A stretch of DNA of 64,000 bases from a virus. Lineage: Duplodnaviria; Caudoviricetes. The position numbers and the translations under genes were made by a program. The stretch lies in the IMG/VR virus record IMGVR_UViG_3300038345_000144, one strand, 5' to 3'. This document shows, in pieces, positions 1-64,000 of the stretch; within the stretch, counting starts at the first letter, position 1, and each line of letters begins with the position of its first letter. The notes below the pieces were generated by a model. It was not told where the DNA came from, searched no databases, and saw only the letters and a program-made list of their open reading frames with translations.

Positions 1-1019
1 AGAGGATTGCCTTCATCGTCGCTGTATGCCTCACCAGTGTTAGGGTCAATAAGATACCAAGTAGTACCTTCGAGTTTTGCGATATTGTTTCTGGTTACAA
101 CTTCGAAAATATCAGTTGCCTTATCAATACCAGTAGCATATCTGAAAATCAACTTACCACCACTACGGTCAATTCCACCGAAACGGCTCTTTGTAATAGC
201 AAATGAAGCAACGAGACCATCAGGAGTGATACCCTTTTCACCCTGAACCTTACCCTCGGTAAGTTCGAGGTCTGTGCCACAAGTAAACTTACGCTGTAAG
301 AACCTAATCTTGAGTGATGGGAAGTAGTTAAGAGCCGTACCACAAGGCTCTGAATACTTAAATGCTCTCGTACCAGGAATTGGCTCTACAATAGAGTGGT
401 TAATCATAATACATACATTCTGCTTGTCCTCCAAAGGTCCAAGCATCATACGACAGAACTTACTCAAGGACTTGGCTACGGTTGCCCTCATACCATTATC
501 CTTGTCAAAGTCGTTCTCATATTCAATTTCTGGAACTAATGCCTTAACAGAGTCAAATACGATAAGTCCAATATCGTCATTATTCTGTAAGTCTAAAATC
601 ATTTTGAAAATCTGCTCTGCGGGGAGACCTACGCAACGCAAACGCATAAAATGTTGTTCGTCTGTCTGTAAGCCAGTCCATCTTGCAAAGGTCTTAATCT
701 GGAACGGAAGGTTGTGTTCTGCATCTACATAAATACAAACCCTATTAGGGAACTTCTTTTGATACTGTGCCATAGCACTTATCGCCGCCAATGTCTTACA
801 ACCACCTGACGGACCTGCAAAGGTAATCATAGTACCAAGCGGAATACCACCGTTGATTGCGAAGTCTGCTGACAATGTACCAATGGAGAACTTCTGAACT
901 TCGGGGATAACATCACCCGCCATCAAAATTTTGTCCCCATACGCCTTGTTGATTGCCAGAGCCGTCGCCAAGACACCTGATACGGGTTTCTTCTCGTCTT
1001 TTGTTACTTTTTTAGCCAT
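1..1019 (-). CDS. recA: RecA/UvsX-like recombinase, runs off the window edge (absent from the ORF track)
   Basis: Manual translation: MAKKVTKD...DFAINGGIPLG..ITFAGPSGGCKT (Walker A)...YVDAEH...LIVFDSV (Walker B)...MINH; frame open to position 1. Confidence 0.9.
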   Translation of the reverse strand, partial: MAKKVTKDEKKPVSGVLATALAINKAYGDKILMAGDVIPEVQKFSIGTLSADFAINGGIPLGTMITFAGPSGGCKTLAAISAMAQYQKKFPNRVCIYVDAEHNLPFQIKTFARWTGLQTDEQHFMRLRCVGLPAEQIFKMILDLQNNDDIGLIVFDSVKALVPEIEYENDFDKDNGMRATVAKSLSKFCRMMLGPLEDKQNVCIMINHSIVEPIPGTRAFKYSEPCGTALNYFPSLKIRFLQRKFTCGTDLELTEGKVQGEKGITPDGLVASFAITKSRFGGIDRSGGKLIFRYATGIDKATDIFEVVTRNNIAKLEGTTWYLIDPNTGEAYSDDEGNP

Positions 1020-45501: not shown

Positions 45502-45570
45502 CGAGACACTGTTGTTTTTTTGATGGCAAGAATATCAGTCTTTATAAATATAATTGCTGTGTGTGTCTCA
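45502..45570 (-). ncRNA. ACAGCAA-stem (Y-like) RNA 2 with a GAT anticodon-like loop
   Basis: GAGACAC-ACACAGCAA...AAGA-CTGATAT-TCTT...GTGTCTCG. Confidence 0.7.
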
Positions 45571-45581
45571 ACTATGTATTG

Positions 45582-59510: not shown

Positions 59511-59637
59511 CAAGACACATTTTTTTGCGTTCCTGCTCTACCAACTGAGCTACCTCCCCATTGGCGGGAAGGGTTGGACTCGAACCAACGACCAGGGGTT
59601 TGACAGACCAAGCGATAAGATTGCTGTGTGTGTCTCA
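59511..59637 (-). ncRNA. ACAGCAA-stem RNA 3 carrying a permuted tRNA-Asp-like domain (YrlA-like)
   Basis: Stem encloses GTC anticodon hairpin, T arm, acceptor stem closed by GCCAAT, D arm. Confidence 0.8.
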
Positions 59638-59645
59638 AACAGCAT

Positions 59646-59679
59646 TGGTGATAAGTTTTTGCAGAACCTAACAAACTGT
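59646..59679 (-). ncRNA. mini-pseudoknot RNA ending in CCA
   Basis: CAG-TTTG-TTAGGTT-CTG-CAAA-AACTTA-TCACCA. Confidence 0.6.
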
Positions 59680-59691
59680 TTTTTTAATTAA

Positions 59692-59761
59692 CAAGACCCG
59701 TTTGTTTCAGAGGTTTTTGATTATCAGTCAAATTCTAAAATAAGATTGCTGTATGGGTCTT
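59692..59761 (-). ncRNA. ACAGCAA-stem RNA 4 with a GAT anticodon stem-loop
   Basis: AAGACCC-ATACAGCAA..TTTGA-CTGATAA-TCAAA..GGGTCTTG. Confidence 0.75.
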
Positions 59762-59766
59762 AAATT

Positions 59767-59876
59767 TGGTTACTGATAACGAGACACGAAATTTTTATGG
59801 AGTCGAACCATATAAGTTTGAGTTGCAGTCAAATTTTTTACCGATAAGTAGATTGCTGTGTATGTCTCAATCAGTC
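59767..59876 (-). ncRNA. ACAGCAA-stem RNA 5 with a GCA anticodon stem-loop, T arm and ACCA end
   Basis: TTTGA-CTGCAAC-TCAAA; TATGG-TTCGACT-CCATA. Confidence 0.75.
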
Positions 59877-59912
59877 TGGTGAATAGTTTTTGGATAGAAC
59901 TAATCAAACTAT
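59877..59912 (-). ncRNA. mini-pseudoknot RNA ending in CCA
   Basis: ATAG-TTTG-ATTAGTT-CTAT-CCAAA-AACTATT-CACCA. Confidence 0.6.
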
Positions 59913-59920
59913 ATAAATTA

Positions 59921-59995
59921 CGAGACACAGTTTTTTAAGGGTGTTTCATTAAAAGTAAAATCCTGAAAAATCAAAGAGTTGCTGTGTGTGTCTCA
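59921..59995 (-). ncRNA. ACAGCAA-stem RNA 6 with a TTT anticodon stem-loop
   Basis: TTTTA-CTTTTAA-TGAAA inside the GAGACAC/GTGTCTC stem. Confidence 0.7.
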
Positions 59996-60000
59996 ATTTG

Positions 60001-60514: not shown

Positions 60515-60601
60515 TGGTGGGCAGGGAGGGACTTGAACCCCCAGAGTCTCTCGACAACGGATTTACAGTCCGTCCCGCTACCAGTTACGGTTTACCTACC
60601 C
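60515..60601 (-). tRNA. tRNA-Tyr(GTA)
   Basis: Cloverleaf, long variable arm. Confidence 0.9.
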
Positions 60602-60644
60602 ATATTATGTTCTTTTGTCAAAGTTCGTTGTGTAAAAGTCTCCT

Positions 60645-60687
60645 AAAAATAAATAACCCCTACACTTTTTCCGATGTAGAGGTTATT
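60645..60687 (-). terminator. attenuator-type intrinsic terminator ahead of the tRNA array
   Basis: AATAACCTCTACAT/GTGTAGGGGTTATT stem followed by TATTTTT. Confidence 0.7.
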
Positions 60688-60721
60688 CATAGGAGATTTT
60701 AGTATGAACACTTATTTCATC

Positions 60722-60871
60722 TTATGTTTTTATACCCTCTACGAAAGGAGTAATAATATCTTCTGTATTATAATCACTATACGCATAAGCAGACTGAACT
60801 GACGGTTCTACTTTCGTAAATGAACCGAGCACGATATTCTCAAAACGCTTATTCATAATAGAATGTCTCAT
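60722..60871 (-). CDS. 49-aa putative leader peptide (absent from the ORF track)
   Basis: GAAAGGAG RBS; MRHSIMNKRFENIVLGSFTKVEPSVQSAYAYSDYNTEDIITPFVEGIKT*. Confidence 0.7.
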   Translation of the reverse strand: MRHSIMNKRFENIVLGSFTKVEPSVQSAYAYSDYNTEDIITPFVEGIKT

Positions 60872-60902
60872 AAACTAACTCCTTTCGTTAGAATTCACAT
60901 TG

Positions 60903-60931
60903 ATTATAAGCAATCAAAATTGGTTTGTCAA
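60903..60931 (-). promoter_or_regulatory. consensus promoter of the main tRNA operon
   Basis: TTGACA-17-TATAAT. Confidence 0.85.
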
Positions 60932-60962: not shown

Positions 60963-61739
60963 TTATGCGATGGAAGTTACCTGAACCATTGGGGTTTCAT
61001 AGAAGTACATATATCCCTGAATTGTAATTGACTGTCCCTGCTGTAAGCCCTGAACGGCTGTATATACCGTTGACTCGGCTCCACCAACAAGGTAAGGATT
61101 TACAGCGAAGGTATATGTTACTCCACCCTGCGATGCCTTAAAGAAGATAGCGTCGCCTACTGAACCATTACCATTATATCCATATCTGAATACCGCACCG
61201 TCTTCCCAAGTTTCTACTACGAAACCTGAAAGTTGAATTTTTCTGTTAATATAGTCGCCTGCTGATGAAGCGAAGATTGTAGTAATATCAAGAGGCTGTG
61301 CAATTACAGGACTTGCAGAAAGAACTTCGATTGTTCCGTTTGCAATCTCTACCTCATTACTAAATACCTGCTTCGTTCCAGTAACCTTAACAGGTGTACC
61401 TTCAGTAATTGAGTCATAAACCGCCTGCGTAAGTCTTACATTATAGAGGAAGTACGCATTGTCGGAGGTCTGGTCCTTAATGAACATTGATGTATTACCG
61501 TCACCAGTCTCTTCTGCGATATAACTCATCTTTGCCTGAACATAGCCAGCAACTACTACCTGCTCTCCGAAGTTCGTTGCCAAGAACTCGTTATAAGTCA
61601 AGGTCGTTCCGTCTGTTACCAACATCGGTACTGTTTCGACTGTCGGAGTTGTAGGCTTATTACAACCTGCAAATGACAGACAAAGGGCAAATACCGTAAT
61701 CAGTCCCAAAAGTCTCTTAATGTTTTTTGTCATTATCAT
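60963..61739 (-). CDS. lipoprotein with probable OB-fold repeats
   Basis: Lipobox FAGC; V.V.G.V..G..V.VTG pattern twice. Confidence 0.7.
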   Translation of the reverse strand: MIMTKNIKRLLGLITVFALCLSFAGCNKPTTPTVETVPMLVTDGTTLTYNEFLATNFGEQVVVAGYVQAKMSYIAEETGDGNTSMFIKDQTSDNAYFLYNVRLTQAVYDSITEGTPVKVTGTKQVFSNEVEIANGTIEVLSASPVIAQPLDITTIFASSAGDYINRKIQLSGFVVETWEDGAVFRYGYNGNGSVGDAIFFKASQGGVTYTFAVNPYLVGGAESTVYTAVQGLQQGQSITIQGYMYFYETPMVQVTSIA

Positions 61740-62040: not shown

Positions 62041-62115
62041 TGGTGTCTCGGACGAGGCTCGAACTCGCAACTCCCTGATTAAAAGTCAGGTACTCTACCA
62101 TTGAGTCACCGAGAC
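62041..62115 (-). tRNA. tRNA-Lys(TTT), second copy
   Basis: Cloverleaf. Confidence 0.92.
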
Positions 62116-62662
62116 ATTTACCTTTGTAGTATAACAAAGGCTAAACATTTTGTAAAGTATTAAGATACTTCGTTTACGGAAACAATATCAAGCCAAAAGG
62201 CTTCATTTTTATGGCGGTTAATGAATTTTTCCTGTGCTTCTTCCTTCGTATCAGCATTGACACACTCTGCTGAAGCAAAATCATCACCATCGAAGATAAA
62301 TTCAATCTTATACTTATTCATAACCTCTTTCTCCTTTGTAAATATTAAACGGCTGTTTACTAAAGGTACAGCCGTAGAAACCTATAATTTTTTACATTTG
62401 ACAGGGTGAGTGACTCACTTTTCCTCCACCACAGAGGCGTTTTAGTGTGGGTGGTTAATCCCAAGATAAACTACCTGTCAAGTTGTGTTTTTGTACCATC
62501 AGGGTCAATGATGTTGGTCTTGGGCAACACAAAACACGAAAATACCCAATGGGTGGTCTTATCGCCAGACTCTTCCGAACACGACTACTTTGGTGTAGCG
62601 TACCGTTATAGCAACCTCTATAACCAGACATCTCTTTTGACCGAGGGTAGATGAAGCCCTAT

Positions 62663-62745
62663 TGGTGGGACTGAAGGGACTCGAACCCTCACGGTTTCCC
62701 GACGGATTTTAAGTCCGTTGCGTCTGCCAGTTTCACCACAGTCCC
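62663..62745 (-). tRNA. tRNA-Leu(TAA)
   Basis: Cloverleaf. Confidence 0.93.
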
Positions 62746-62810
62746 ATATAATTTTCAGAAAATAGGATATACTCTGCAAGTTCTATGAACCGAGTATATC
62801 CTTTTTCTAC

Positions 62811-62889
62811 TGGCTGGGGTAACAGGACTCGAACCCGTACCTCCAGAGTCAAAGTCTGGTGTGCTAACCAATTACACAGTCATACCCCA
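62811..62889 (-). tRNA. tRNA-Gln(TTG) with a 3-nt insertion before the D stem
   Basis: Loop CT-TTG-AC. Confidence 0.85.
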
Positions 62890-62964: not shown

Positions 62965-63396
62965 TTATCTATCTAAAAATGTTCTAATGCTCATAATAGC
63001 CTGTCTATCTTCAGAAGACAACTTGGAGAACTCTCTACAAAGAATTAAAATTGCCCTAAAAGCACCTTCGTCAATGAAATGATGTGTATTTCTACCTTCC
63101 TTTGCATTGGCTTCATCCTGCTTTTTACAATTCTCCTTCTCCTCTTGAAGTGCCTTCTCAATGTCGGCATCGGTTAAATCGGCATAAGCCTCATAACCAT
63201 CCTTCAAAAGGCGTTGGCGAACAGGCAATAATAAAAAGGCAAACCCTTGTTCATAAGTTGTTGCAATATCTCTGGTCTCATCACTGATGTTCAGCCAGTG
63301 ACCCAACGCTTCATTCTGTTTCTTTTCTTCTGCGGATAATCGTCTTCCCATCTTAAATCTCCTCTCTGATTGCTCCTGCGGAGTCTGCGTCGGCAA
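62965..63396 (-). CDS. hypothetical protein (start probably MGRRL)
   Basis: GAGGAG RBS. Confidence 0.6.
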   Translation of the reverse strand: MPTQTPQEQSERRFKMGRRLSAEEKKQNEALGHWLNISDETRDIATTYEQGFAFLLLPVRQRLLKDGYEAYADLTDADIEKALQEEKENCKKQDEANAKEGRNTHHFIDEGAFRAILILCREFSKLSSEDRQAIMSIRTFLDR

Positions 63397-64000
63397 AACT
63401 CATAAGCAGGTCGAACTTTTCCTGACCGAGAAATCTTCTCCACTTGTCAAAGTTCTTCTGTGTACGGTCTTTATCCTTCTTCAAGAGCATATGATAGTTG
63501 ACAAGGAAAATACCTTCCAAATCAATAACTCCATCAATAGGGTGGGTAATAAGGTAGTATGCACCAACATTGGCGTGGTCATAGAAGTGATAACACTTCT
63601 TTTCCTCGTCCCAAGTCTGGGTGTATATCTTACCGATGTCGTGGTAAAACACATACTTTTGCTTATTATTATAATTAAATAGTCTATCAACAGCGACACA
63701 ATGCTCATAGACATTTTCCTTGTGCCATTTTGATGTCTGTTCAGTAGCCTTCATTTGAGCCTGAATTTCAGCCTCGTTAAGAGGGGCATTATCACCAATA
63801 ACCCTAATCTCATTGAAACCTTCCTCTCTAAAAGGCATTTCAAAACGGTGGACGAACTTCCAAATGACTGCCTCACCAACAGTTCTATCCCTCTTGCTAT
63901 CCTGCTCAATCGCCTTTTCAACAGGCACAGCAATAACAACAGCCACAAGGTTATACTTGTACTGCTTACCCATATTTACGGCTCTGGACCTATTCTTAAT
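63353..64000 (-). CDS. polynucleotide-kinase-like (AAA_33) plus HD-domain protein, 5' end outside the window
   Basis: Frame open to the edge; R.R.V.E.VI....FE.P...EGF then H.E.V.EH, YHDIGK, HA.VGAY, HM, AD. Confidence 0.75.
   Translation of the reverse strand: MKNRSRAVNMGKQYKYNLVAVVIAVPVEKAIEQDSKRDRTVGEAVIWKFVHRFEMPFREEGFNEIRVIGDNAPLNEAEIQAQMKATEQTSKWHKENVYEHCVAVDRLFNYNNKQKYVFYHDIGKIYTQTWDEEKKCYHFYDHANVGAYYLITHPIDGVIDLEGIFLVNYHMLLKKDKDRTQKNFDKWRRFLGQEKFDLLMSFADADSAGAIREEI

Follow-up and report, generated by a model that had tools for sequence, protein, structure and literature searches.

A putative ribosome-operated transcription attenuator between a strong promoter and the tRNA genes of a gut megaphage

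The bmrB leader of the bmrBCD operon in B. subtilis contains a 53-codon ORF and alternative stem-loops that mediate ribosome-dependent transcription attenuation; translation of the leader is required, and general inhibition of translation promotes readthrough (PMC4191407). The trp attenuator is described by a model of four segments in which 1:2, 2:3, and 3:4 pairings are alternatives (PMC4615214). A different use of long-range pairing is found in the MS2 maturation gene, where a distant segment sequesters the SD and limits translation to nascent RNA (PMC4615214). Our literature search found no paper on a leader-ORF attenuator located before phage tRNA genes.

Here, we analyze a locus in a 64,000-nt stretch of DNA, designated the window, from the Caudoviricetes record IMGVR_UViG_3300038345_000144; all positions follow the numbering of the whole stretch. 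We propose that the locus encodes a ribosome-operated, four-segment transcription attenuator situated between a strong host-type promoter and a promoter-less run of tRNA genes, a reading to which we assign a probability of about 0.5. Segment 1 would consist of the 5′ end of the transcript together with the SD, segment 2 of the last codons of the leader ORF, and segments 3 and 4 of the arms of a hairpin that resembles an intrinsic terminator (Table 1).

The bmrB leader is the closest known system. Both leaders combine a long ORF, of 53 codons in bmrB and 45-49 in the phage, with alternative stem-loops and a terminator, the latter putative in the phage; both lack a run of regulatory codons, and the host is Gram-positive, which is probable for the phage. 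They differ in that the bmrB terminator lies inside the ORF and a drug exporter is controlled, whereas the putative phage terminator follows the ORF and tRNA genes would be controlled. Moreover, the anti-antiterminator partner in the phage would be the SD/5′ end itself, there is no similarity in sequence, and the phage leader is described from its sequence and computed folds. Like the trpL, hisL, and pheL leaders, the phage leader has four segments, and segment 2 is predicted to be masked by a ribosome that has reached the stop codon; transcription is likewise predicted to terminate if the leader is not translated. Unlike those leaders, it has no tandem codons for one amino acid, its ORF is three times longer, its segment 1 is the SD/5′ UTR and not coding sequence, and its targets would be tRNA genes and not biosynthetic enzymes. 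The likeness to the MS2 maturation gene is that a distant complement would pair with the SD once it is synthesized, leaving a brief period for ribosome loading. The complement lies upstream of the SD in MS2; here it resides in the last codons of the ORF, where it would double as the antiterminator. A search of Rfam, including T-box and other known cis-regulatory leaders, produced no match at the gathering score and only noise at E values up to 10.

All features of the leader lie on the minus strand (read from 61000 to 60480), as does every one of the 45 tRNA genes and the tmRNA gene in the 64-kb window. Beyond the hairpin, the order of tRNAs is Tyr, Pro, His, Thr, Asn, Val, Lys, Ile, Asp, and others. 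An earlier note on this DNA placed a terminator before the first tRNA gene. This is correct insofar as the hairpin precedes tRNA-Tyr, the first gene of the main block, but tRNA-Tyr is not the first tRNA gene of the phage: three others, on the same strand at 62041-62886, are upstream of the leader. Metagenomes of gut samples, bovine ones among them, contain contigs as long as 406 kb that carry an identical leader ORF, and the source is a megaphage (a giant phage of the gut or rumen).

Consensus -35 and -10 hexamers, the strong SD, and the distant homologues of the lipoprotein-like neighboring gene in sugar-transporter operons of Firmicutes suggest that the host is a Firmicute. The product of this 258-aa neighbor has bacterial homologues with 30-38% identity whose genes directly follow that of the solute-binding protein of a sugar ABC transporter (L034 and L035); one homologue is named as coming from an uncultured Gemmiger. 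The neighbor is probably host-derived and provides a hint to a host within the Clostridia. The sugar ABC-transporter operons that encode these bacterial homologues contain no leader of the kind described here. RNA-repair-type genes are located just upstream of the tRNA region (63353-64000, minus strand, in the window; 30-2093 in L012). Relatives encode an AAA_33 (polynucleotide-kinase-like) protein and a T4-type RNA ligase 1 near the tRNA region, a 206-aa ORF of the window (63353-64000 region, minus strand) carries an HD-like YHDIGK motif, and some lineage B copies have an HNH endonuclease gene inserted nearby.

Table 1 Positions of leader features in the window and pairings that vary among the lineages of alignment A3.
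Feature	Positions	Strand	Details
Neighboring gene (258 aa)	60963-61739	-	Upstream of leader; lipoprotein signal LSFAGC
Sigma-70-type promoter	60903-60931	-	TTGACA 60931-60926, 17 nt, TATAAT 60908-60903; 12/12
Segment 1 (transcript 5′ end and SD)	60878-60893	-	UUCUA-A-CGAAAGGAGU; pairs with segment 2
Leader ORF (49 codons)	60722-60871	-	TAA stop 60724-60722; 45-47 codons in other lineages
Weak internal hairpin	60803-60827	-	CGGUUC...GAACCG (GUUC/GAAC core); predicted fold
Segment 2 (last codons of ORF)	60732-60751	-	ACUCCUUUCGUAGAGGGUAU; putative anti-SD (with segment 1) and antiterminator (with segment 3)
Segment 3 (hairpin 5′ arm)	60674-60690	-	AUGAAUAACCUCUACAU; pairs with segment 4 or segment 2
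Segment 4 (hairpin 3′ arm and U-rich tract)	60645-60665	-	GUGUAGGGGUUAUUUAUUUUU; stem 60665-60649
Conserved 25-nt stretch	60602-60626	-	GAACTTTGACAAAAGAACATAATAT; directly 5′ of tRNA-Tyr
tRNA-Tyr (GTA)	60515-60601	-	ARAGORN and Rfam; first gene 3′ of hairpin
1:2 extension, lineage A			UUCUA with UAGAG, one-base bulge
1:2 extension, lineage B			AGACUU with AGGUCU
1:2 extension, lineage C			UGACUUU with GAGGUCG
1:2 extension, lineage D			GAUUUU with GAGGUC
Hairpin stem pair, A3 columns 335-366			A, AU; B, GU; C, GC; D, GC
Hairpin stem pair, A3 columns 338-363			A, UG; B, UA; C, CG; D, UG
Hairpin stem pair, A3 columns 331-370			A, AU; B, AU; C, not paired; D, GC

Strain-level copies of the locus (L001-L011) are 97-100% identical and almost uninformative; they differ by a 3-nt in-frame deletion, one Tyr-to-Cys change, a TAA/TAG variant of the stop codon, and a different upstream flank in one copy. 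Diverged lineages were reached through the neighboring gene, one metagenome pattern scan, and look-ups of the small ORF. Alignment A3 comprises lineages A (the window), B (L012 and L025-L033), C (L013 and L017-L020), and D (L016); L014 and L021-L024 constitute D′, a variant of lineage D. The neighboring gene exhibits 64-70% protein identity between lineages with a pS of about 0.6, which indicates that unconstrained bases are near randomized between them. The earlier note recommended a search for the same layout elsewhere, and we find it kept in these four diverged lineages of metagenomic phages of ~350-400 kb. Searches of GenBank phages by blastn returned tRNA matches only and no relative, and IMG/VR, searched with both proteins and by pattern, likewise contained none. 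Two further pattern matches, one in a high-GC human-gut contig (L015) and one in a Pirellulales MAG (L036), were dismissed as chance. A profile search with all four leader peptides retrieved no additional lineage.

The promoter of the leader was described earlier as perfect; indeed, TTGACA-17-TATAAT scores 12/12. Three such matches occur in the 64 kb compared with 0.09 expected, all on the minus strand and within the tRNA region, and TTGACA-17-TATA(A/C)T is kept in lineages A-D. The transcript segment AACGAAAGGAG carries the SD AAAGGAG (60885-60879) 7 nt 5′ of the ATG at 60871, which bears out the strong ribosome-binding site that had been noted; AACGRAAGGAG is common to all lineages with the ATG 7-12 nt beyond. 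On the minus strand between 60903 and 58048 (~2.8 kb of tRNA genes), no promoter-like site reaches at least 9/12, and the next perfect promoters past the leader are at 54670 and 52042. The tRNAs from Tyr onward would thus depend on polymerases that pass the hairpin.

The ORF that follows has 49 codons, and the earlier counts of 32 distinct codons and 18 amino acids are correct. The breadth of codon usage was offered as the basis of a general tRNA sensor, but it is ordinary. Among random 49-codon windows from the phage's own genes, 13% reach 32 codons and 35% reach 18 amino acids, and on these grounds we rejected breadth as a design feature. The leader was also inspected for a cluster of codons for a single amino acid of the trpL/hisL type, and no codon run was found. 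The leader ORF is the only frame that is open in all four lineages (0 stops vs 1-9 in the other frames), and the chance of its staying open is 0.03-0.056 per lineage. The peptides are only 17-31% identical between lineages, with pN/pS of 0.62-1.11 vs 0.30-0.37 for the neighboring gene, and within lineages ~8 nonsynonymous changes accompany 3 synonymous ones. Positions kept across lineages are M-L-x-S and EPSV. These figures point to a peptide that evolves almost neutrally while its ORF is kept open. Within the ORF, folding predicts a weak hairpin (-4 to -9 kcal/mol) at the equivalent place in the four lineages, and the part of it designated GAACCGTCAGTT is nucleotide-identical in lineages A, C, and D.

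The leader peptide belongs to no known family or fold. The sole matches to the 49-aa peptide in HMMER searches were proteins with SpaA/Cna-B-type repeats (stretches of 25 aa; E = 5e-8 as a sum over 4-5 repeats); the matching motif is not kept in the peptides of the other lineages, and we therefore regard the match as spurious or, at best, as a remnant. Fold-back inhibition of the SD also occurs in hok-type mRNAs. Unlike the products of those mRNAs, the phage peptide is neither hydrophobic nor toxin-like, and a type I toxin mRNA with fold-back inhibition was rejected for this locus, all four peptides being polar or charged and without a membrane-spanning hydrophobic stretch.

The most conserved stretch of the leader is a 16-nt motif at the 3′ end of the ORF, ACYCCTTYYGYAGAGG (ACYCCUUYYGYAGAGG), which is present in all lineages. 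The motif is read in frame 0 in the window (A) and L016 (D), as ACT CCT TTC GTA GAG, and in frame +1 in L012 (B) and L013 (C), as (T)AC TCC TTT TGT AGA GG. Its conservation in two reading frames indicates a constraint on the nucleic acid and not on the protein. Judged from the nucleotide record, an ORF that stays open, a peptide that drifts almost neutrally, and an RNA motif indifferent to frame are the signature of a regulatory leader, not of a protein gene.

The main partner of the motif is absent from the earlier note. Its 5′ part (ACUCCUUUCG) perfectly complements the SD region, and its 3′ part prolongs this helix, designated 1:2, to the predicted 5′ end of the transcript through pairs that differ among lineages (Table 1). 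Helix 1:2 contains 15-18 bp with a duplex energy of -20 to -22 kcal/mol and is part of the MFE structure in all four lineages. In alignment A3, 88% of 1:2 cells are paired, rising to 90% for the structure composed of 1:2 and 3:4, with 41-54% in slid controls. A two-sided AU-to-GC change in lineage D occurs at A3 columns 118-267, and further two-sided changes in 1:2 occur at columns 108-277 and 107-278. The leader as a whole folds with unusual stability (z = -3.9). Segment 2 mimics the 16S anti-SD and so would restrict loading to the pioneer ribosome. Yanofsky's group reportedly observed a comparable shut-off of the ribosome-binding site in the trp leader.

Segment 2 has a second potential partner in the 5′ arm of the hairpin. 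The 10-of-11 pairing reported earlier between the end of the ORF and this arm can be read directly from the sequence, where GTAGAGGGTAT (60742-60732) is complementary to ATAACCTCTAC (60686-60676). For RNA that ends short of the 3′ arm, the minimum-energy fold is the resulting 2:3 pairing (-13.5 kcal/mol), and dinucleotide shuffles pair equally well in 0.5% of cases for the last 66 nt and in ~2% for the whole leader. No other upstream segment pairs as well with the 5′ arm as segment 2 does in any of the four tRNA-linked lineages (7-11 bp, -10.6 to -14.7 kcal/mol); the shuffle fractions range from 0.006 to 0.05, p-values that are not independent owing to shared ancestry. Across the alignment, 88% of 2:3 cells are paired vs 36-69% in slid controls. 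GUAGAGG:CCUCUAC is unchanged in lineages A, B, and D. Lineage C has GCAGAGG:CCCCUGC, which combines a compensatory UA-to-CG change with a new A.C mismatch; the U-to-C change weakens 1:2 and retains 2:3. Lineage-specific extensions of 2:3 pair UAU with AUA in A and CAGU with GCUG in D, and the stop codon lies 7-16 nt past the GAGG core. We regard the support for a 2:3 antiterminator as real and moderate, coming as it does from four related lineages and one clean compensatory event. To the same moderate degree, conservation of the alternative pairings in four lineages favors the earlier proposal that terminator and antiterminator are mutually exclusive. Helix 1:2 is much stronger than 2:3 (-20 to -22 vs -10.6 to -14.7 kcal/mol), and by this margin of predicted energy it could dominate over it.

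The hairpin that contains segments 3 and 4 has a 17-bp stem (60690-60674 with 60665-60649) followed by UUAUUUAUUUUU, and its U tract lies 41 nt before tRNA-Tyr, which starts at 60601. Its predicted energy is -16.6 to -20 kcal/mol, or -26 kcal/mol with a CUCCUA/UAGGAG extension. A terminator-like hairpin after the leader ORF, as claimed earlier, thus appears where it was expected, with a stem and U tract before tRNA-Tyr, and the post-ORF hairpin is kept in all four lineages. Pairs of its stem covary at A3 columns 335-366, 338-363, 331-370, and 341-360. The upper stem, which is common to the 2:3 pairing, is invariant in three lineages; the lower stem has changed by compensation. We infer that the hairpin terminates transcription. 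Lineages A and B have good U tracts; those of C and D (GGGGCUUUUAGAUU and GGGGCUUUCUAAUUGGG) are weak, which makes termination in the latter two doubtful.

Several other features accompany hairpins in this region. Between the leader stop codon and the hairpin there is another anti-SD-like stretch, CUCCU (60691-60696, minus strand), which pairs with UAGGAG just past the U tract (60640-60645, minus strand), extending the stem to -26 kcal/mol. At this stretch, lineages A and D have 18 identical nt in common (ATACTAAAATCTCCTATG), and lineage B has ACUCCUU directly after the leader stop codon. Elsewhere in the array, hairpins with U tracts occur without a leader between ORFs and tRNAs (all minus strand): at 43815-43791 after a 495-aa ORF and before tRNA-Gln, at 54349-54316 before tRNA-Glu, and at 62801-62765 between tRNA-Gln and tRNA-Leu. 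Evidently, the tRNA array tolerates terminator-like hairpins, or polymerase reads through them.

Variant D′ retains the leader ORF and helix 1:2, and it retains the promoter except in L024, where the promoter and 5′ UTR are also replaced. The available downstream DNA (~1.2 kb in the longest locus) contains no tRNA gene, and there is no 2:3 pairing. A different strong hairpin with nine U's occurs right after the leader stop codon (L014 1840-1930, and L021-L024). It is followed by convergent genes of 123, 62, and ~200 aa, one of which matches Methylase_S (type I specificity subunit); the contigs end inside this gene.

An ORF and fold-back maintained without downstream tRNA genes or 2:3 pairing would be expected if the locus were an ordinary small phage gene that evolves fast and has a terminator of its own. 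The fold-back of the SD onto the end of the ORF would then limit translation to nascent RNA and stabilize a short mRNA, the tRNAs would derive from constitutive leak or from upstream transcripts, and the 2:3 complementarity would be inherited chance. The weak U tracts of lineages C and D, variant D′, the leaderless hairpins, and the other perfect promoters make this the main alternative, one that we take seriously while judging it somewhat unlikely. It is also in keeping with the retained peptide positions M-L-x-S and EPSV, with the in-frame nature of the 3-nt deletion among strains, with the leaky hairpins elsewhere in the array, and with the fact that small genes co-transcribed with RNA genes are normal here, as exemplified by a 62-codon ORF before the tmRNA gene. 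Inhibition by SD fold-back has a precedent in the MS2 maturation gene (PMC4615214). However, such a gene would not readily account for a pN/pS near 1 in an ORF whose length and end point are nonetheless kept, or for a C-terminal part that is read in different frames, so that no C-terminal peptide is conserved. Nor would it explain a frozen upper stem beside a drifting lower stem in the hairpin, or the correlated U-to-C and A-to-G changes in lineage C that weaken 1:2 and keep 2:3. The absence of a known family or fold for the peptide also speaks against it.

To return to the attenuator, ribosome positions were modeled by constrained folding of lineages A, B, and C. As long as the SD is free, the nascent RNA adopts 1:2 and not 2:3, and placing a ribosome at codon 22 makes no difference. 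When the SD and start codon are occupied, 2:3 forms (8-11 bp), and a ribosome at the stop codon blocks it. The ground state of the complete RNA is 1:2 together with 3:4. These folds imply that readthrough requires initiation on the leader and a lead ribosome that remains short of the last codons.

From these structures, we propose the following sequence of events, in which translation of the leader ORF and the kinetic order are inferred. If the SD is free of ribosomes, 1:2 would form and shut off further initiation, after which 3:4 would form and stop transcription, leaving a closed transcript of ~250 nt. If ribosomes hold the SD and start codon while the lead ribosome lags behind polymerase, segment 2 would be uncovered and 2:3 would form first, allowing polymerase to read into tRNA-Tyr and the genes beyond. 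If the lead ribosome arrives at the stop codon early enough, it would cover segment 2, 3:4 would form, and transcription would stop. Termination would thus follow from a lack of translation and from prompt translation alike. The idea that a finishing ribosome masks the antiterminator, put forward in the earlier note, agrees with the placement of the stop codon, from which a ribosome would cover segment 2, and with the predicted block of 2:3. The signal would probably be the overall speed of decoding or initiation on the leader, and not one amino acid. Transcription and translation are uncoupled in B. subtilis; with such a Firmicute host, pacing by ribosomes may not work as it does in E. coli.

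The earlier note went further and proposed that stalling anywhere in the ORF, through loss of almost any tRNA, frees the antiterminator, making the leader a general sensor of tRNA depletion. The geometry of stop codon, antiterminator, and terminator fits this proposal, as do the RNA-repair genes nearby (AAA_33 kinase-like protein and T4-type RNA ligase in relatives). The folds do not: in lineages A, B, and C, helix 1:2 persists in RNA with a free SD despite a ribosome at codon 22, and no 2:3 is formed. Stalling in mid-ORF would free the antiterminator only if the SD were held as well, for example by a queue of ribosomes or rapid re-initiation. Considering also that the breadth of codons and amino acids is ordinary and that peptide and codons differ freely between lineages, we view a sensor of any tRNA as unlikely.

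A further reading dispenses with translation. The locus could specify a structured RNA, either a stable leader RNA of ~250 nt that acts in trans or a processing module (e.g., a site for a double-strand-specific RNase) that separates the leader from pre-tRNA. In its favor, the entire ORF is enclosed by a helix that begins at the predicted +1, the leader fold is unusually stable (z = -3.9), and trans-acting RNAs derived from attenuators are known, such as rnTrpL (PMC6614838). Against this reading, an ORF with a consensus SD and ATG is open in four lineages at odds of 0.03-0.056 each, and Rfam contains no match. Moreover, classical RNase III sites are longer than a bulged helix of 15-18 bp, and the present helix is short for such a site. 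We consider a structured RNA that functions independently of translation quite improbable.

Additional elements were observed in the tRNA region. The 25-nt stretch before tRNA-Tyr (GAACTTTGACAAAAGAAYAYRATAT) is kept in lineages A, B (L012 6124-6147), and D (L016) and is absent in C. A promoter in the conserved TTGACAAAAGAA stretch at this place was considered and rejected; it has TTGACA and no -10 hexamer at valid spacing. The 25-nt stretch may serve as a signal for processing, as a pause site, or as a binding site. The gap between tRNA-Thr and tRNA-Asn, which belongs to the promoter-less stretch downstream of the leader, contains five copies of a 24-nt element (plus-strand ATAAGATTGCTGTGTGTGTCTCAA) at a spacing of 107-126 nt (coordinates 59615-59996 and 45548-45571), as well as tRNA-like T-arm sequences (59561-59593) that ARAGORN did not call. 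ARAGORN did call a tRNA with a four-base anticodon (ggaa) and an enlarged loop at 55465-55536 (minus strand) between tRNA-Ala and tRNA-Glu. Its Rfam tRNA score is 43.7 bits, and it could be a frameshift-suppressor-like or decoy tRNA. Of the two other perfect promoters (TTGACA-N17/18-TATAAT), the one at 54642-54670 (minus strand) is ~20 nt before tRNA-Trp (54622). The one at 52013-52042 (minus strand) drives the tmRNA together with a GGAGG SD and a helical-looking ORF of ~62 codons (ATG 51980); 5 nt separate the end of this ORF from the tmRNA gene (51786). We considered this ORF as a second leader and rejected it as an ordinary small gene; its fold is no better than that of shuffles (z = 0.17).

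A conserved leader whose peptide evolves almost neutrally provides a concrete, testable handle on the control of tRNA arrays in large phages. Even if the locus proves to be a small gene with its own terminator, it would still be a clean natural case of SD fold-back control in a small phage gene. If the attenuator is real, its ribosome-binding site would act as the anti-antiterminator, an addition to the known attenuator designs. It is tempting to speculate, as a long shot at present, that megaphages gauge host translation through a pioneer-ribosome leader in which the SD is an arm of the switch. The ~20-30 tRNA genes and Y-like RNAs beyond it would then be opened only when initiation occurs and decoding is slow, as an on-demand counter to depletion or cleavage of host tRNAs. 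Such a mechanism would link the tRNA supply of the phage to the translation state of its host and would bear on defenses that target tRNA.
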